The notes beneath the pieces were generated by a model. That model was not told the DNA's origin, ran no database searches, and was given only the letters and a program-made list of their open reading frames with translations. From the NCBI GenBank assembly GCA_013415595.1, contig JAAEEW010000041.1, positions 1-30,627 of the forward strand: 30,627 bases of DNA, in the 5' to 3' direction. This document shows positions 3,724 through 18,254 of this stretch, in pieces. A program made the translations under genes and the position numbers. This DNA comes from Methanosarcinales archaeon. GTDB taxonomy: Archaea > Halobacteriota > Methanosarcinia > Methanotrichales > Methanotrichaceae. How positions within the stretch are numbered: the first letter of the stretch is position 1; each line of letters opens with the position of its first letter.

Positions 3724-4980
3724 ATGAGCTTGAGGGGCTTTCTGAGGGGGCTGAGAGAGGCCTCCCTCCTGCAGGAGATCCGGGAGCCGGTCTCCCCCCA
3801 GTACCAGGCTGCGGCCAGAGCATACGACGCCGGGCCCATCCTTTTTCATGACCTCAGCGGCAGCCAGGCCTGCATCAACGTCATCGGCACCCGGGACCTG
3901 CTGGCCCGGGCCCTGGGCATCCCCGCCCAGGACATGGTCAGACATCTGAGCAGCCTGGAGTTCGAGGGGCCGGTGCGAGAGGTCGACTCCGCCCCCTTCC
4001 AGGAGGTCGTCGGCCGGCCGGACCTCTCCAAAATTCCGGTCTTAACCCACTTCCCCGGGGACGGGGGGCCCTACATCACGTCGGCGGTGGTGGTCTCCCG
4101 GTTCGAGGACCGGATCAATGCCTGCGTCCACCGGCTGATGGTTCTGGGCAAAGATAGGCTGGCCGCCCGGCTGGTCCCGGGCAGGCACACCCACCGCATG
4201 TACACCGATGCCCTGGAGAAGGGGCAGACCCTGCCGGTGGCCATCGCCATCGGGGTGGACCCCCTGGTGCTCATCGCCGCCAGCACCCGGGTTCCCGAGA
4301 ACAGGGAGTTCAACTACGCCGCCGCCCTGCGGGGAGGGCCGGTGGAGCTGGTCACCCTGGATAACGGCGTCCCCGCCCCCCAGGCGGAGATCGTGCTGGA
4401 GGGATACATCACCGCCGATCGGGCCTCCGAGGGCCCCGTCGTAGACATCACCGGCACCGCCGACCTGGTCAGACAGGAGCCGGTGATCCAGCTCACCCGC
4501 ATGATGACCAGGGAGCGTCCCCTCTACCAGGCCCTGATGCCGGCGGGAGGAGAGCACAGGATGCTGATGGGGGTCCCCTACGAGCCCTTGATCTACCGGG
4601 CGGCCTCCAGGGTGGCCCGGGTGAAGAACGTCATGCTCACCGACGGCGGTTGCTGCTACTTCCACGCCGTGGTGCAGATCGAAAAGCAGTCCGAGGACGA
4701 GCCGAGACGGGTGGTGGAGGCCGCCTTCCAGGCCCACGGCAGCATGAAGCACGTGCTGGTGGTGGACTCGGACATCAACATCTACGACCCCCGGGACCTG
4801 GATTACGCCATCGCCACCCGGATGAGGGGGGACGAGGACATCTACCTCTATCCAAACGTGCGGGGCAGCACTCTGGACCCCAGAAGCGTGGAGGGGATGA
4901 CCACCAAAGTGGGGGTCAACGCCACCGCCCGGCTGGACAAATTGTGGAAGTTCCAGAGAATAAAGCCGGGAGAGGCCTGA
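3724..4980 (+). CDS. UbiD-family (prFMN-dependent) decarboxylase; likely anhydromevalonate phosphate decarboxylase of the archaeal modified mevalonate pathway
   Basis: DGGPYITSAVVV, NACVHRLMV, EIVLEGYI, EGPVVDITGT, DLDYAIATRMRGDEDI, GSTLDP and TTKVGVNAT match the UbiD family. The specific substrate is inferred from archaeal homologues. Confidence 0.88.
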   Translation: MSLRGFLRGLREASLLQEIREPVSPQYQAAARAYDAGPILFHDLSGSQACINVIGTRDLLARALGIPAQDMVRHLSSLEFEGPVREVDSAPFQEVVGRPDLSKIPVLTHFPGDGGPYITSAVVVSRFEDRINACVHRLMVLGKDRLAARLVPGRHTHRMYTDALEKGQTLPVAIAIGVDPLVLIAASTRVPENREFNYAAALRGGPVELVTLDNGVPAPQAEIVLEGYITADRASEGPVVDITGTADLVRQEPVIQLTRMMTRERPLYQALMPAGGEHRMLMGVPYEPLIYRAASRVARVKNVMLTDGGCCYFHAVVQIEKQSEDEPRRVVEAAFQAHGSMKHVLVVDSDINIYDPRDLDYAIATRMRGDEDIYLYPNVRGSTLDPRSVEGMTTKVGVNATARLDKLWKFQRIKPGEA

Positions 4981-5040: not shown

Positions 5041-6723
5041 TCAAGCCCGGGCCAGCTCCCACAGCCTGATTTCACTTCCCTCGCCGCAGAGGGCCAGATG
5101 GCTCATCTTTGGACTGAAGGCCACCGCCCGGGCCCGGCCCAGGCAGTCTAGCTCCAACGCCTCGCAGCCGGCCACCAGGTCCCACACGCGCAGGAGCCGG
5201 CCGGAGTCTGCGGCCAGGAGATACCTGCCGTCCGGACTGAAGGCCGCCGCCAGGGCGTGGCAGGATAGATCAAAGCCCAGCGCCTCCTCGCCCCCGGCCA
5301 GGTCCCAGACGCTGCCCTGGCCCTCCTGGCTGCAGGTCAGCAGATAGCTCCCCTCTCCGCTGAAGGCCGCCGCGATCACCGGAGCTCCGCGCTCGATCCT
5401 TGATGCCTCCCGGCCGCCAGTCAGCTCCATCACCCGGGCGGAGCCGTCCTTGCCGGCAACGGCGATGTACCTGCCGCAGGGGCTGAAGGTCAGAGAGTTG
5501 ATGGTATCCCCAAGGCTGGCGCGCCACAGCTCCCGCCCATTCGAAGGCTGCCACAGGCGGACCTGGTTCCAGCTGGTGGTGGCCAGATATCTCCCGTCAG
5601 GGCTGAAGGCCACCACCCGGGGTATGTAATCGTGGGATAGACGGGCTACCTCTCTGCCGGATGCATATTCGTAGATCCTGGCAGAGCCGTCCCCGGTGGA
5701 GAGGGCCAGATGACGGCCGTCCGGACTGAAGGCCAGGGCGTGAACGGAGGACGTCTGTCCCAGCCTCGATATCTCGATTCCCCGTCCCACGTCCCAGACC
5801 CGCGCTGTGCAGTCGTCGCCGGCTGTGGCCAGATGGCGGCCGTCAGGGCTGAAGGCCAGAGACCACACCCTACCTCTGTGGCCGGTGAGGGGTGGGAGCA
5901 GTGAACTGACGGCCAACCCCGGCAGCGTGCCGAATCCGGGCAGGGAGGCCGGGTCCGCCTTCTCGAGCCACTCCCGGCGGGCCCTGCACTCAGCCGATAG
6001 ATCGGCGTTCAGGCTCTCCAGCCTGCCAGTCATCCTCTCGATCTCAGCCTTCATTGTGGGCAGGTCGGGATTGGTGGGGATGCGAATCAGGGAGATCCTG
6101 TCCGTGGCCATGGACAGGGCCACCAGGGGAACTCCTCCCACCACCACCAGCTTGGCGTAGTGCTTGACCTTCTTCCAGAACAGCTCCCCCTCCAGCTCCT
6201 GCAGCTTCTTCTGATAGGCATTCAGCTCTGAGCCCATCTCCGAGGCCATCTTCCTGTAATCCCTGCTAAAGAAGCTGCGATCGAAGGCGATGAGGCCCTG
6301 GGTGGGGTAATTCTCGGTGCATTCGTAGACCTGGAGCAGGGCGTTTCGCCGATCCCCCATGAAATAGAAATAATTGAAGTTGCCCCAGTAGCCCAGAGCA
6401 ATGAGGTCCCGGTTATCGGCTTCCCCGGACGTTCCTTTGGTCTTTCCGAGGGGATCCAGATTGATCAGATAATTGAACTCCCGGCGAGCATTGCGATACT
6501 CTTCCAGCTCTACCTCCGAAATATCGGAGCTGATTCCATCCACCAGATGCCTCAGACCTACCCTGGCCTTTATCAGCACCTGCTCATCCAGCTTCTCGTC
6601 GATTCTCCTGAGCTGGTCCTTGATCTCGTCAAACCGCCTGTTAATTTGCTGGGGATTGTTCCTGATCATCTTCTGGGCTGAATCCAGCGCACATAGCATC
6701 CTGAAGGCAAGCCAAATATCCAT
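5041..6723 (-). CDS. WD40-repeat protein: helical/coiled-coil N-terminal domain plus 7-bladed beta-propeller
   Basis: Seven repeats of the form xAFSPDGRxLA...RxW[DE] in the C-terminal ~285 aa. The N-terminal ~260 aa appear helical, with heptad-like stretches and a hydrophobic segment. Confidence 0.9.
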   Translation of the reverse strand: MDIWLAFRMLCALDSAQKMIRNNPQQINRRFDEIKDQLRRIDEKLDEQVLIKARVGLRHLVDGISSDISEVELEEYRNARREFNYLINLDPLGKTKGTSGEADNRDLIALGYWGNFNYFYFMGDRRNALLQVYECTENYPTQGLIAFDRSFFSRDYRKMASEMGSELNAYQKKLQELEGELFWKKVKHYAKLVVVGGVPLVALSMATDRISLIRIPTNPDLPTMKAEIERMTGRLESLNADLSAECRARREWLEKADPASLPGFGTLPGLAVSSLLPPLTGHRGRVWSLAFSPDGRHLATAGDDCTARVWDVGRGIEISRLGQTSSVHALAFSPDGRHLALSTGDGSARIYEYASGREVARLSHDYIPRVVAFSPDGRYLATTSWNQVRLWQPSNGRELWRASLGDTINSLTFSPCGRYIAVAGKDGSARVMELTGGREASRIERGAPVIAAAFSGEGSYLLTCSQEGQGSVWDLAGGEEALGFDLSCHALAAAFSPDGRYLLAADSGRLLRVWDLVAGCEALELDCLGRARAVAFSPKMSHLALCGEGSEIRLWELARA

Positions 6724-6955
6724 TCCCGATCAACTCGCATTGCTATACAATAGAGAGAAATCTCTGAAAAGACCAGCCAAGACTCTCGAGTCCCATTTTC
6801 AAAGAGAGCTGAAGGTCACGGCAAATGAACCGGGAATCTAATAAACCTGTCGAAAAAGTCGACCAGATTCCAAAGAGGCCCCATGATGAGACTATTCGCT
6901 ACGAATGACCCATGTAGGGCCCCTATGCCAGGGCCCCGATCCCTGGCCACCTCAG

Positions 6956-7054
6956 CTAAATTTCCAGGTACAGCCTGATGCTGTAGATGGCCGCAGCCGC
7001 CAGGAATAGCCCGATGCATAGGGCCATGATCTGCAGAGCAATATCCGGAACCAC
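6956..7054 (-). CDS. Putative 32-aa single-pass membrane microprotein (not in ORF track)
   Basis: Manual translation from GTG 7054 to TAG 6956 gives MVPDIALQIMALCIGLFLAAAAIYSIRLYLEI. A GAGGTG Shine-Dalgarno overlaps the ftsZ stop 6 nt upstream, and third positions are mostly G/C. Confidence 0.65.
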   Translation of the reverse strand: MVPDIALQIMALCIGLFLAAAAIYSIRLYLEI

Positions 7055-7064
7055 TCGTCCCACC

Positions 7065-8114
7065 TCATCCCCTGACTTCTATTCTCTCCTCTGACCTCTC
7101 TTCCGCTTCGCGAGCTGCACCGGCCCGCCCGAAACCGGAGACTATGGCCGTCACCCTCACCCGGCTGCCGAAGTCCTTTCTCACCCTGGCCCCCCAGATC
7201 AGGTGGGCCTGGGGGTCCAGTTCCCTGGTCATGGCCAGGGCGATGGCCGAGGCCTCCCGCAGGGTGATCTCCTCGCCGGCGGTGATGTGGAGCAGGCAGC
7301 GGGTGGCCCCCCTCCAATCCGCCTCCAGCAGGGGATTGTGCAGAGCCGACCGGATGACCTCCTCCGGTCCGTCGCTGGTTCTGGCCTCCCCCACCAGGAT
7401 GGCCGAGGGCTGGCCGGCCTTGATCACCGTCCTCAGGTCGGCATAGTCCAGGTTGATGAGGGAGGGCTCGCTCACCGCCTCGGAGAGCCCGGAGACCATC
7501 TCCGCTGCCACCTGGTCCATCACCGAGAAGGCCCCGGCCGGTGATAGATGGGGGGCGATCTGCAGCAGTCGGGAGCGGTCCAGCAGGATCAGGGAATCCA
7601 GAATCCCCTGCAATCCACGAACCGGGGACTCCTGAACCAGCAGCTGGAGCCGTTCCCTGGAGAGGGCGGTGGTGAAGATGCCTATTCCCATGGCCCCCAC
7701 ATCCCTGACCAGCCCGGCCAGCACGGGAAGGGCTCCGGTGCCCGTCCCTCCGCCCAGGCCGGCGACCAGGATGATCAGCTCGTAGCCCTGGAGCAGCTTT
7801 CTGAGGGCCGGGATGTCCGACTGCGCCGCCCGGCGGCCTACGTCCCAATCGCCATGAGCCCCCAGGCCTCCCGCCACCTCCCGGCCTATCAGCAGCTTGC
7901 GGTCGGCCACCGCCTGGGCAAGCTGGTGGACGTCGCTGTTCAAGGCCACCGTATCCGCCCCCGACAGACGGCCCCGGCCCAGCCTGGAGACGATCCTGCT
8001 TCCGGCCCCGCCCAGTCCCACCACGGCAATCCGGGATGGCGCGTCCTCGACGGAGGAACCCGGGCGGCACCTGGCCTCCTCAGAGCCGGTCCCGGGAGGG
8101 CTGGTAATGCTCAT
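7065..8114 (-). CDS. ftsZ: FtsZ/tubulin-family GTPase, divergent FtsZ paralogue
   Basis: VVGLGGAGSRIV, ALNSD, GLGAHGD, tubulin signature GLGGGTGTG, T7 loop INLDYADLRTV, LLHITAG, IWGAR and VRVTAIVSG. Start is ATG 8114 (alternative GTG 8129). Confidence 0.9.
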   Translation of the reverse strand: MSITSPPGTGSEEARCRPGSSVEDAPSRIAVVGLGGAGSRIVSRLGRGRLSGADTVALNSDVHQLAQAVADRKLLIGREVAGGLGAHGDWDVGRRAAQSDIPALRKLLQGYELIILVAGLGGGTGTGALPVLAGLVRDVGAMGIGIFTTALSRERLQLLVQESPVRGLQGILDSLILLDRSRLLQIAPHLSPAGAFSVMDQVAAEMVSGLSEAVSEPSLINLDYADLRTVIKAGQPSAILVGEARTSDGPEEVIRSALHNPLLEADWRGATRCLLHITAGEEITLREASAIALAMTRELDPQAHLIWGARVRKDFGSRVRVTAIVSGFGRAGAAREAEERSEERIEVRG

Positions 8115-8233
8115 GGCCCCTTTTTGCACTCCTTTTAAACTTCCTTAACTATCTAATTCCCCGTATCTTAATAATAGTACATAAGTCTTCCCGGAAGGAT
8201 ATCTTTATCATCGATCCTGAACTGCGGGGATTT

Positions 8234-9013
8234 ATGGTGCTAGACGAGATTTTGGTCACCAGAGCCATCGTTGAGAGCTACCTGGAGAGCTTTCTGAAGT
8301 ACACGGACGTGGACGTGGCTCTGGTGGGAGCCGGTCCTGCCAACCTGGTGGCTGCCAAGCGCCTGGCCGAGGCTGACGTGAAGACCGTCCTCTTCGAGAA
8401 GAGGCTGTCTGTGGGCGGCGGCCTGTGGGGCGGGGGGATGATGTTTCCCAGGATCGTGGTGCAGAAGGATGCCTGCCGCATACTGGACGAGTTTGGGATC
8501 TGGTACCGGGAGTACGAGGACACGTACTTCGTGGCCAACTCCATCGAGGCCGTGGCCAAGCTCACCGCCGGGGCCATCGACGCCGGGGCGGAACTGATCA
8601 ACCTGGTTACGGTGGAGGACGTAATGATCCGGGAAGACGACCGGGTGGCCGGGCTGGTAATCAACTGGACGGCGACGGAGATGGCCGGGCTGCACGTAGA
8701 TCCTCTGTCCATCCGGGCCAGGCTGGTCATTGACGGCACCGGCCACGACGCCGTGGTCTGCCGGGTGGTCCAGAGGAAGATTCCGGGAGCCAGGATCGGG
8801 ACCCAGGGGGTCATGGGAGAGAAGCCCATGTGGGCGGAGCAGGGGGAAAGGACGGTGGTCGAGGCCACCGGCGAGGTCTACCCCGGGCTCATCGCCGCCG
8901 GAATGGCCGCCACCACGGTCTGTGCCGGCCCCCGCATGGGCCCCATCTTCGGGGGCATGCTCCTCTCCGGAGAGAAGGCCGCCTCCATCGCCCTGGAGAA
9001 GCTGGGCCGCTAG
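8234..9013 (+). CDS. thi4: Thiamine thiazole synthase, sulfide-dependent (non-suicidal) type
   Basis: VGAGPANL, FEKRLSVGGGLWGGG, IDGTGHD, GPRMGPIFGGMLLSG. GLHVDP has His where yeast THI4 has the sacrificial Cys (CMDP). Confidence 0.93.
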   Translation: MVLDEILVTRAIVESYLESFLKYTDVDVALVGAGPANLVAAKRLAEADVKTVLFEKRLSVGGGLWGGGMMFPRIVVQKDACRILDEFGIWYREYEDTYFVANSIEAVAKLTAGAIDAGAELINLVTVEDVMIREDDRVAGLVINWTATEMAGLHVDPLSIRARLVIDGTGHDAVVCRVVQRKIPGARIGTQGVMGEKPMWAEQGERTVVEATGEVYPGLIAAGMAATTVCAGPRMGPIFGGMLLSGEKAASIALEKLGR

Positions 9014-17399: not shown

Positions 17400-18254
17400 T
17401 CACCCGTTCTTCCTGTAGAGCACGTGCCCGCACTGCTTGCAGTGGGAGGCGTCCATGTCGTGGCGGTTGAGGCCGCAGTCGGGACAGATGACGCTCTTCT
17501 TGGCGGAGATGGTCAGCCACTCCCGCACGATCTGGCTGGCCTGCCAGGGTATGAGGATTATCCCGGAGATGATCATCAGCACCGTCACCCACCTCCCGGC
17601 TTCGGAGACGGGGACGATGTCGCCAAAGCCCACCGTGGAGAGGGCGACGACGGTGAAGTAGAAGGCGTCGCCGAAGTTTCTCACCATGGGATTGGCCGGG
17701 CTCTCCACATAGTAGAACAGCCCTGAAGAAATGAAGAAGATGATCAGTATGGTGAGGGTCAGGCGCATCACCTTCAATAGATCGGTGGCGATGACGCCAA
17801 AGAACATGTGGTCGACGGCGAAGAAGCGCAGGAAGCGGAATATGCGAAAGACGGCAAATACCCGGATGGTCTTCAGCACGCCGATGTGCAGGGAGAGGCC
17901 GAAGAAGGGCATTATTATCTCCAGAATGGTGGGAAAGATGGCCACCAGGTCGATGATGCTGTAGATGTGCCTGACGTGGGAGCGCCGGTCGTAGCTGCCG
18001 TAGAGCCGGAGGACGTACTCCACTATGAAGAAGAAGACCACCGACACCTCAATCCTCCACAGGACCTCTCTGGCCTGATCGGAGATGGTGTAGGTGTTGG
18101 CCACGAAGATGGCGCAGATCAGCAGGTTGAGAGATATTATCAGGAAGTCTATGCCCCGGCCGAGAGGCGTCCGGTGATCTATCATATAAAAGTGAACAGA
18201 CTCCCTGAAGGAGCGTTCGGGCTGGCTAACCTGACTGTTCTCTGGCCTGGACAT
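17400..18254 (-). CDS. 6TM voltage-gated K+ channel-like ion transport protein with C-terminal Cys4 zinc ribbon
   Basis: S4-like IRVFAVFRIFRFLRF, pore FGDAFYFTVVALSTVGFGD, tail CPDCG...HCKQCG. Start 18254 (alternative 18263). Confidence 0.92.
   Translation of the reverse strand: MSRPENSQVSQPERSFRESVHFYMIDHRTPLGRGIDFLIISLNLLICAIFVANTYTISDQAREVLWRIEVSVVFFFIVEYVLRLYGSYDRRSHVRHIYSIIDLVAIFPTILEIIMPFFGLSLHIGVLKTIRVFAVFRIFRFLRFFAVDHMFFGVIATDLLKVMRLTLTILIIFFISSGLFYYVESPANPMVRNFGDAFYFTVVALSTVGFGDIVPVSEAGRWVTVLMIISGIILIPWQASQIVREWLTISAKKSVICPDCGLNRHDMDASHCKQCGHVLYRKNG

Follow-up and report, generated by a model that had tools for sequence, protein, structure and literature searches.

We propose that the short open reading frame (ORF) lying behind a divergent ftsZ gene in the 30,627 nucleotide stretch of DNA analysed here, hereafter the window, is a gene for a single-helix membrane microprotein of 31-32 aa that is specific to the Methanotrichaceae, usually sits behind ftsZ2 and has a function that does not depend on FtsZ2, an account that we find reasonably probable as a whole. 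At this locus the microprotein is the stable element and FtsZ2 the unstable one.

Organisation of the locus

The microprotein coding sequence occupies positions 6956-7054 of the minus strand and has 32 codons, made up of a GTG start (7054-7052) and 31 further sense codons, and closed by a TAG stop (6958-6956). A Shine-Dalgarno-like GAGGTG (7066-7061, minus strand) overlaps the TGA stop codon of ftsZ2 (7067-7065) and lies 6 nt before the GTG, the gap from the ftsZ2 stop to the microprotein start being 10 nt in the window, and the ORF has a start, a Shine-Dalgarno-like site and a stop of its own. We take GAGGTG to be a match to the archaeal anti-Shine-Dalgarno sequence, and hence a putative ribosome binding site; in homologous loci GAGGTGAT or GATGTGAT is found at an equal distance from the start. 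A 35-aa form starting from an alternative GTG at 7063 was rejected, as this start falls inside the Shine-Dalgarno-like site and the homologues align from 7054, the start that is also backed by a public gene call (P0001). The translation agrees letter for letter with that of a preliminary description made from the window, which had placed a Shine-Dalgarno site, a GTG and a 32-aa peptide directly after the ftsZ TGA. Its remark that the codons are host-like holds only roughly, GC3 being 0.72 in the microprotein against 0.79-0.90 in the adjoining genes.

The upstream gene (7065-8129, minus strand; 354 aa as the longest ORF) matches Pfam Tubulin (4e-23) and FtsZ_C (5.5e-22), and both its position and its place in the tree make it the FtsZ2 orthologue, with a branch of great length that agrees with the earlier label of a divergent FtsZ. 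Its GTP-binding motifs are altered in the motif alignment, its C-terminal tail is short, its TIGR00065 score of 259 bits is under the cut-off of 295, and it reaches 209 bits against M. jannaschii FtsZ1 where the other paralogue reaches 420 bits. In the gene tree it falls within the Methanotrichaceae FtsZ2 clade (support 100/99, terminal branch 1.16), and the window shares with its relatives the order thi4-ftsZ2-microprotein-ubiD. The same genome encodes FtsZ1, split between two contig ends (C32 and C80), and SepF (C254, 42.7 bits); a third FtsZ was considered and dropped, only the split FtsZ1 and the FtsZ2 orthologue being present. FtsZ1 turned up in all but one of the 105 family genomes (104), the exception being G043 (87% complete), which has no full-length match.

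The upstream synteny anchor is thi4, of the thiazole synthase family (8234-9013, plus strand), which is divergent from ftsZ2, and the downstream anchor is a convergent UbiD-family decarboxylase gene (3724-4980, plus strand), which the relatives also carry downstream of the microprotein. A gene for a WD40 beta-propeller protein of 560 aa (5041-6723, minus strand) stands between the microprotein and ubiD; it is an insertion in the window genome only, absent from this place in the relatives, and lies outside the conserved unit.

A coding sequence restricted to the Methanotrichaceae

A profile search recovered homologues of 28-32 aa, ending in ...IYSIRLYLEI, as single copies in 76 of the 104 other Methanotrichaceae genomes (the relatives compared include MAGs), with one strong match per genome at E values from 1e-16 to 4e-6. 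Beyond the family, 287 genomes of the class gave no convincing match, and of 185,579 species scanned only Methanothrix, Methanosaeta and Methanotrichaceae records contained the microprotein, three of them under the bare title 'uncultured Methanosarcinales archaeon'. An exhaustive HMMER search of 1.84 billion proteins yielded no more than 32 representative clusters, 31 being 28-62 aa long. The exact sequence is present in the ESM Atlas, where a 64-member cluster of 31-aa 'hypothetical protein' entries is probably the same family; the other Atlas matches were set aside as noise (scores of at most 0.82, DUF948 on 14-22% of members). A word-index search with the 40-aa stop-to-stop frame returned three proteins only, which is an undercount when set against exact look-ups and HMMER and is no evidence of rarity. 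Pfam and NCBIfam scans with the 32- and 35-aa forms gave no family match at E values up to 10, and searches of the literature on the motif, and on Methanothrix or Methanosaeta together with FtsZ or small proteins, turned up no description of the microprotein. It is an undescribed, lineage-specific small membrane protein of the Methanotrichaceae, deposited already as a 31-aa 'hypothetical protein'. The preliminary description had called the gene uncalled and probably missed by annotation, which is right insofar as no Pfam or NCBIfam family covers it and wrong in general, as public collections contain the exact product of 32 aa along with many homologues of 31 aa, and the gene is called in several MAGs, each time as a hypothetical protein. 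As the current calls are sporadic and bear only that name, a curated family model is merited for consistent naming.

That the ORF is a real protein-coding gene we regard as nearly certain. Its reading frame persists through 52 distinct nucleotide versions, it starts with ATG in nearly all homologues, whose lengths at these loci are 27-32 aa, and it has a pooled dN/dS of 0.27 in the microprotein frame versus 0.89 and 1.95 in the two shifted sense frames and 0.46-2.0 in antisense. Entropy at codon positions 1, 2 and 3 is 0.90, 0.45 and 1.36, greatest at the third, then the first, then the second, and the position of the stop is fixed while TGA, TAA and TAG are each used. Conservation in frame next to ftsZ orthologues and a constrained dN/dS, the checks proposed when the ORF was first noticed, were both found, and the gene is under purifying selection. 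Spurious ORFs are many in high-GC genomes, and the 3′ untranslated region (6820-6955, minus strand) has a stable predicted fold (MFE -57.7 kcal/mol, z -3.5 versus shuffles) and a U5 run, possibly and tentatively the transcript end, from which one might take the ORF for a product of chance in GC-rich DNA or for an RNA element, the 3′ UTR or terminator of ftsZ2. Across homologous loci, the unaligned downstream sequence is random-like (entropy 1.92), which leaves conservation of the fold unsupported, and the sole match in an Rfam scan scores 21 bits against a threshold of 47 bits. Furthermore, the ORF is kept where ftsZ2 is gone, and the window has 258 stop-to-stop ORFs between 30 and 60 aa, of which only this one reaches a Kyte-Doolittle mean of 2.4 over 19 residues (its value is 2.49). 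The frame-specific, codon-periodic substitutions, together with a stop fixed in place but spelled by three codons, effectively refute a non-coding origin, which we hold to be very improbable.

Linkage and probable coupling to ftsZ2

An ftsZ2-like gene lies just upstream in 41 of the 52 distinct loci, and in 34 it is intact or cut by a contig end only. Among these 34 loci the two genes share an ATGA overlap in 20, are separated by 4-13 nt in nine and by 33-68 nt in five. Judged by sequence, they have the look of an operon pair, on the same strand, with an overlap or a gap of no more than about 15 nt and the Shine-Dalgarno-like site within the upstream gene. The Shine-Dalgarno-like site and the ATGA overlap argue for translational coupling and for the co-transcription with ftsZ that had been suggested from the window, and we think it very likely that the microprotein is co-expressed with ftsZ2 where the latter is present.

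In the window the ORF, which is +1 relative to ftsZ2, already opens 11 nt ahead of the ftsZ2 stop, so that one could also read it as a recoding extension, in which a frameshift or readthrough adds a C-terminal membrane helix to some of the FtsZ2. The relative frame, however, varies by locus, being -1 at the ATGA overlaps, +1 in the window and in-frame after a tandem TGA-TGA in g13, the gaps reach 68 nt, and an ATG and a Shine-Dalgarno-like site of their own are present in nearly all homologues, which makes recoding extremely improbable.

Coupling by ATGA that is this tight and frequent is a real association, and guilt by association favours a division role, which counts against our proposal of a function independent of FtsZ2. 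One such role builds on the preliminary description, with the microprotein as a dedicated membrane anchor or partner of the FtsZ paralogue, supplied in fixed proportion through translational coupling. Its place directly 3′ of ftsZ2 in 34 of 52 loci, 20 of them by ATGA, and its predicted embedding in the membrane are what such an anchor would have, and the shortened, variable C-terminal tail of Methanotrichaceae FtsZ2 could need another tether. The distribution of the two genes bears directly on this claim.

Retention of the microprotein without FtsZ2

Eleven loci have the microprotein and no upstream ftsZ, with thi4 or UPF0146 in its place at 94-273 nt; in relatives without ftsZ2 the distance between thi4 and the start of the microprotein is 126 nt. 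For the nine loci other than L092 and L094 (the g2 subclade, g4 and g5), whole-genome searches found FtsZ1 only, with no full-length FtsZ in the MAG G043. In the three ftsZ2-less clades, the within-clade pN/pS is about 0.05-0.3, computed from few substitutions (1-7 per pair). The g2 subclade still has thi4 while g4 and g5 have lost it, so that ftsZ2 was deleted independently at least twice. The microprotein is also kept behind an ftsZ2 pseudogene (g10) and behind an ftsZ2 without the GTPase signature (g7).

The reverse case exists as well, with ftsZ2 found without the microprotein in g6 and g8 and the microprotein ORF frameshifted in g3; the microprotein is missing from 16 of 16 g8, 3 of 3 g6 and 2 of 2 g12 genomes, the genera that have it being g1, g2, g4, g5, g7, g9-g11 and g13-g16. 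This case is the weaker of the two, because the microprotein may have arisen too late to be in g6, g8 and g12, instead of being lost from them, and the FtsZ2 gene tree, compatible with a basal as well as with a derived position of the microprotein-less genera, fits one gain followed by losses and a later origin alike. Neither gene is confined to genomes that have the other.

Since the microprotein gene outlives deletion or decay of ftsZ2 under purifying selection, the pairing is not obligate and a dedicated FtsZ2 anchor is a weak reading. Further evidence against it comes from ftsZ2 standing alone in g6 and g8 with the ORF decayed in g3, from the presence in the genome of SepF, the canonical FtsZ anchor of archaea, and from the small part of the microprotein, some 6-8 residues at most, that could protrude from the membrane and leaves it without a globular FtsZ-binding domain; a search for longer or fused FtsZ-transmembrane forms found none, which is weak evidence. 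The anchor claim for the FtsZ paralogue does not survive this comparison well and we judge it rather improbable, whereas independence of the microprotein from FtsZ2 is likely.

A function in division or at the septum, exerted with FtsZ1, SepF or the septum and sheath assembly rather than with FtsZ2 specifically and comparable to that of Blr and SidA, would keep the conserved genomic association with a division gene and also explain why the microprotein outlasts FtsZ2, as it fits a partner that is never lost, FtsZ1 being near universal in the family and SepF being encoded here. The g6, g8 and g12 genomes also divide with FtsZ1, however, and have no microprotein, and in the ftsZ2-less loci the gene is monocistronic with no division gene nearby, and we therefore consider such a function unlikely, though less so than an FtsZ2 anchor.

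Predicted structure and comparison with known systems

AlphaFold2 predicts one continuous helix over residues 4-30 (27 of 32) with a pLDDT of 94.9, which together with the hydrophobicity bears out, as a prediction, the single hydrophobic helix of the preliminary description. The C-terminal motif Y24-S-I-R27-L-Y29-L-E31-I32 is kept, Y29 and L12 are invariant by column counts, and a face of invariably small residues is formed by A11, S/A/G15, G/A19, A/G21-T22 and S25. The charges leave the topology ambiguous, neither end standing out as positive. With a length below about 50 aa, signals of its own, a predicted helix of bilayer length and purifying selection, the microprotein has the traits of a small single-pass membrane protein.

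Bacteria have small single-pass membrane division proteins in E. coli Blr (41 aa) and Caulobacter SidA (29 aa). Like them, the microprotein is tiny (in the range of 30-40 aa), consists of one hydrophobic helix with hardly any soluble domain and is connected with the divisome genomically or functionally, and action would be expected through helix-helix contact with larger membrane proteins. Unlike them, it is archaeal, family-restricted and not known as stress-induced, there is no sequence relationship, and it is linked to division by position only, a link that the gene does not need in order to be kept in FtsZ2-less relatives. AcrZ, KdpF, CydX and MgtS are small transmembrane accessory subunits or modulators, with which the microprotein shares a length of at most 50 aa, a single transmembrane helix, a conserved small-residue face and a juxtamembrane motif, features that fit binding to a larger membrane complex. 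Genes for such proteins usually stand in the operon of the complex that they join, whereas the only recurrent operon partner of the microprotein is FtsZ2, which is cytoplasmic and often lost. Hok, TisB and Ibs are small hydrophobic toxin peptides, and by size and hydrophobicity the microprotein could be grouped with them as a type-I-toxin-like peptide that damages the membrane. Type I toxins occupy multi-copy or strain-variable loci accompanied by an antisense RNA, and the microprotein has a single strong match in each genome, always at the same syntenic place, is inherited vertically across the family under purifying selection and is coupled to a housekeeping-type gene, with no conserved antisense ORF signal seen; we give a toxin a very low probability.

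SepF (PMC8178401, PMC8187382) and CdpC (bioRxiv 10.64898/2026.07.16.738847) bind the membrane by an amphipathic helix and FtsZ by a folded domain, and CdpA is an anchor of the midcell ring according to its authors (PMC12126565). The microprotein resembles all three in being predicted to associate with the membrane and in coming from an archaeon that uses FtsZ. Its length leaves no space for an FtsZ-binding domain, and its distribution does not follow that of FtsZ2; PF04472, the SepF domain that binds the C-terminal peptide of FtsZ, gave no match to it at E values up to 10. In the cdrS-ftsZ2 operon of haloarchaea, cdrS is described as a small transcriptional regulator gene co-transcribed with ftsZ2 (PMC8406309). 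Both cases place a gene for a small protein with ftsZ2 in an archaeon. The cdrS product is soluble and its gene lies upstream of ftsZ2, whereas the microprotein gene follows ftsZ2 and its predicted product is a membrane helix, and the sequences are unrelated.

Proposed model and implications

The following model would fit these observations. Where ftsZ2 is present, both genes would be co-transcribed and translationally coupled, and where ftsZ2 is gone the microprotein would be read from the old divergent promoter region. As the entire peptide would be finished before it leaves the ribosome, insertion into the membrane would presumably follow translation. The helix, from about residue 4 to 30, is expected to cross the membrane, which would place the conserved aromatic and basic end (Y24, R/K27, Y29, E/D31) at the membrane-water interface. 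The microprotein may pack against another membrane protein, or its own copies, as an accessory subunit or modulator; for a helix-packing accessory subunit we see roughly even chances. A division- or envelope-related partner is possible and unproven, and one related to division in particular seems to us somewhat doubtful. A bolder version, in which the microprotein is a Methanotrichaceae-specific septum or division component of sheathed, filament-forming methanogens that took over or bypassed a membrane-proximal role of FtsZ2, is improbable enough to be offered as speculation only; if true, such a takeover would account for the fast evolution of FtsZ2, its repeated deletion, pseudogenisation and loss of GTPase motifs, and the conserved 31-aa neighbour.

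Small membrane proteins are under-annotated, and we know of none in an archaeal FtsZ-based division system. The 31-aa gene is a clean and testable case, with strong comparative support, located at a division gene and restricted to Methanothrix/Methanosaeta, acetoclastic methanogens that are major contributors of biogenic methane. The Methanotrichaceae are sheathed and form septa. It has been proposed that FtsZ2 is needed to constrict flexible envelopes and is lost with a rigid wall or septum (bioRxiv 10.1101/2020.06.04.133736). Repeated decay of FtsZ2 in this sheathed, septum-forming family would be an independent natural test of that proposal.

A microprotein gene behind ftsZ2

The ftsZ-like ORF of the window (ftsZ2; 8129..7065, minus strand) terminates ...GAA GTC AGG GGA TGA, with its TGA at 7067-7065, and is followed on the same strand by an SD-like hexamer, GAGGTG (7066-7061), six intervening bases and a 32-codon frame running from GTG (7054-7052) to TAG (6958-6956), whose translation is identical to the peptide of the preliminary description. 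An alternative start at GTG 7063, adding three residues, was rejected, since that GTG is itself part of the SD-like hexamer and alignments of the homologues begin at 7054. The window has 258 stop-to-stop ORFs between 30 and 60 aa, and of these the microprotein, with a 19-residue Kyte-Doolittle mean of 2.49, is the sole one to reach 2.4; its GC3 of 0.72 is somewhat under the 0.79-0.90 of neighbouring genes. The region 3′ of it (6820-6955, minus strand) has an unusually stable predicted fold (-57.7 kcal/mol, z -3.5) with a U5 run that, from the window sequence only, may be the transcript end.

Over 52 distinct nucleotide versions of the ORF, variability is codon-periodic (entropy 0.90/0.45/1.36 at codon positions 1/2/3) and the pooled Nei-Gojobori dN/dS, a check that the preliminary description had proposed, indicates purifying selection, at 0.27 in the microprotein frame; the remaining sense frames give 0.89 and 1.95, and the antisense frames 0.46-2.0. 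The stop position is fixed, written as TGA (37 versions), TAA (11) or TAG (4), and the sequence just past it is unalignable. By this signature the ORF behaves as a translated gene; an RNA element was rejected on the same periodicity, frame-specific dN/dS and fixed stop with three codons, and on an Rfam scan of the region that gave no match.

The expectation that annotation had missed the gene stands in part, as Pfam and NCBIfam scans of the microprotein returned no model; it is not universally missed, since public collections include 31-aa 'hypothetical protein' records (among them OPX75638.1, UEC40968.1, MDQ1312562.1 and OPY47027.1). At least 1000 contigs carry one of the microprotein sequences, and a cluster in the ESM Atlas has 64 members; our literature search found no paper on the motif or on a small protein at Methanothrix ftsZ.

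The upstream gene is a divergent FtsZ2 orthologue

The upstream protein has Pfam Tubulin and FtsZ_C domains, scores 259 bits against TIGR00065 (cut-off 295), and reaches 209 bits against M. jannaschii FtsZ1, versus 420 bits for L030 (genome G006), a same-family orthologue of this genome's other FtsZ paralogue. This genome's own copy of that paralogue, FtsZ1, has canonical motifs and lies in two pieces at the ends of two contigs (C32:4862-5363 and C80:5876-6283); it is one gene broken by assembly, not two, and automated counts could thus give three FtsZ fragments for this genome. In a maximum-likelihood tree the window protein falls within a Methanotrichaceae clade (support 100/99), separate from the branch with the second FtsZ of Methanosarcinaceae, another family (f2) and a single FtsZ1 outgroup row; this is a single-gene tree, and the order of gains and losses is beyond its resolution. 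Branches are very long in Methanotrichaceae (1.16 for the terminal branch of the window protein, 1.28 for genus g8 and 0.82 for genus g3, versus at most 0.06 in Methanosarcinaceae). Because of this placement and a gene order common to the window and its relatives (divergent thi4, ftsZ2, microprotein, convergent ubiD), we identify the gene as the FtsZ2 orthologue and not as a third paralogue. In this genome alone a further gene (5041-6723, minus strand) is inserted between microprotein and ubiD; its 560-aa product combines an uncharacterised N-terminal half of ~270 aa with a C-terminal seven-blade-type WD40 propeller, and such eukaryote-like WD40 proteins are, to our knowledge, uncommon in methanogens.

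Relative to its relatives, window FtsZ2 carries GGAGSRI for GGAGNNT, TTALSRE for TTPFxxE, DRSRLL for DNNRLL, NSD for NTD and GAHGD for GAGGD, all non-conservative changes at GTP-binding and catalytic motifs, and retains the T7-loop NLDYAD. These altered motifs, with the sub-cut-off TIGR00065 score, make its GTPase competence doubtful and bear out its first description as a divergent FtsZ.

ftsZ2-like sequence lies immediately upstream of the microprotein in 41 of 52 distinct loci, and in 34 of these ftsZ2 is intact or cut by a contig end alone. Spacing in the 34 is an ATGA overlap (20), a gap of 4-13 nt (nine; 10 nt in the window) or a gap of 33-68 nt (five). At the overlap loci (L002-L004 and others), GATGTGAT in the last 20 nt of ftsZ2 is the SD-like site of the microprotein and also encodes the conserved FtsZ2 C-terminal ...R-I-D-V-I-K/R peptide (GAT GTG ATA), a stretch that thus appears to be under both coding and translational-signal constraint. 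The close spacing, the overlaps and the SD-like site within ftsZ2 make co-transcription and translational coupling likely. Because the frame relation varies between loci, we rejected the idea that frameshifting or readthrough fuses the microprotein to FtsZ2.

The microprotein is confined to Methanotrichaceae

The sequence behind the best ftsZ matches was scanned in 40 related genomes. Eight same-family loci have a homologous ORF of 28-31 aa, ending ...IYSIRLYLEI, that overlaps the stop of ftsZ or follows it at once, and none was found behind ftsZ in the other two families of the class sampled. A profile built from ten homologues (A1) matched 76 of the 104 remaining Methanotrichaceae genomes, strongly and once in each (E 1e-16 to 4e-6), the relatives being mostly MAGs. 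Seven further families of the class, represented by 287 genomes, gave no convincing match, the single hit (E 0.004) covering the hydrophobic core alone. All 27 loci from a pattern scan of 185,579 species, one genome each, belong to Methanothrix, Methanosaeta, Methanotrichaceae or 'uncultured Methanosarcinales' MAGs. Among 1.84 billion representative proteins, searched exhaustively with HMMER, 32 clusters matched; save for two apparent frameshift variants they measure 28-62 aa and are matched at their C-terminal end. A toxin-like peptide was rejected in view of the single copy, conserved synteny and vertical conservation of the gene.

Microprotein and ftsZ2 are separable

The preliminary description proposed a co-transcribed membrane partner or anchor for this FtsZ. 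A dedicated FtsZ2 anchor would account for the adjacency in 34 of 52 loci, 20 by ATGA overlap, yet the pairing breaks in both directions. The microprotein has no ftsZ upstream in 11 loci: thi4 starts 94-126 nt away in four g2 species, and UPF0146 is the neighbour, 167-273 nt off, in genera g4 and g5. Flanking homology marks these as deletions at the same locus, and whole-genome searches for nine of the 11 found an FtsZ1-type gene alone, except in G043, an 87%-complete MAG, where no full-length FtsZ was found. Selection nevertheless persists, with more synonymous than non-synonymous changes per site within every ftsZ2-less clade (seven versus one change in g4; pN/pS ~0.07-0.3 within g5 and the g2 subclade).

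The microprotein is likewise kept behind degraded ftsZ2. In both g10 species ftsZ2 has in-frame stops and a frameshift. Genus g7 retains the microprotein in 7/7 genomes by profile, and at the four loci inspected the upstream ORF is recognisable as FtsZ in its C-terminal part alone; in two such ORFs of 298-344 aa (L066:2882-3913:+ and L068:3025-3918:+) Pfam found FtsZ_C and no Tubulin domain, and the conceptual translation, made for L066, has no GGGTGTG signature. Keeping FtsZ_C and the T7-loop region, the g7 ORF may be a pseudo-GTPase FtsZ derivative.

Conversely, in g6 and g8 ftsZ2 directly meets convergent ubiD and the microprotein is missing, and in g3 a frameshift disrupts its ORF, whose stop is gone; at L014 (G002:C52, ~17429-17590) ftsZ2 is followed by MNDLLIEL..., a frameshift and ...LGLATNYNIRLHLEI, which points to a copy in decay or else to an error of assembly. 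The g8 FtsZ2 match at L029 (G007:C16:83136-84149) sits within a 665-aa open frame, others in g8 being 412-638 aa, which may reflect an extended N-terminus or just GC-rich sequence that happens to be open. Furthermore, this genome has a gene for SepF, established as the FtsZ tether of archaea (PMC8178401, PMC8187382), and the microprotein is too small for an FtsZ-binding domain. We thus find a dedicated FtsZ2 anchor improbable.

A model for the microprotein

The model that most reasonably fits these observations is that of a real gene, likely co-expressed with ftsZ2 where ftsZ2 exists, whose selective value is probably independent of FtsZ2. AlphaFold2, from a 49-sequence alignment, predicts a single helix over residues 4-30 (mean pLDDT 94.9), which would place it among small single-pass membrane proteins. 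In alignment column counts L12 and Y29 are invariant, and a small-residue stripe follows one helix face: position 11 (Ala or Ser, 100%), 15 (S, A, G or T without exception), 19 (Gly or Ala, 73%), 21 (Ala or Gly, 94%) and 25 (Ser or Cys, 96%). The end motif Y/F24, R/K27, Y29 and E/D31 is kept in 100% at each position. We suggest that the stripe is a helix-packing face and that the end motif forms an aromatic/basic collar at the membrane interface; the lack of a clearly positive end leaves the membrane topology ambiguous. A 31-aa peptide must insert into the membrane after translation. By analogy with other tiny transmembrane proteins, the microprotein would act as an accessory subunit or modulator, packing on a larger membrane protein or on itself, the best-supported mechanism, which we hold with about equal belief and doubt. 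That its partner is division- or envelope-related is a more tentative possibility.

For FtsZ2 itself, the loci compared (L001-L029 and L061-L072) indicate that it is unstable across Methanotrichaceae, being cleanly deleted in the g2 subclade and in genera g4 and g5, pseudogenised in g10 and reduced to a remnant with no GTPase part in g7. Loss of FtsZ2 with a rigid envelope has been proposed for pseudomurein methanogens (bioRxiv 10.1101/2020.06.04.133736), and Methanotrichaceae may be an independent case of such loss in a rigid-envelope, septum-forming archaeon.
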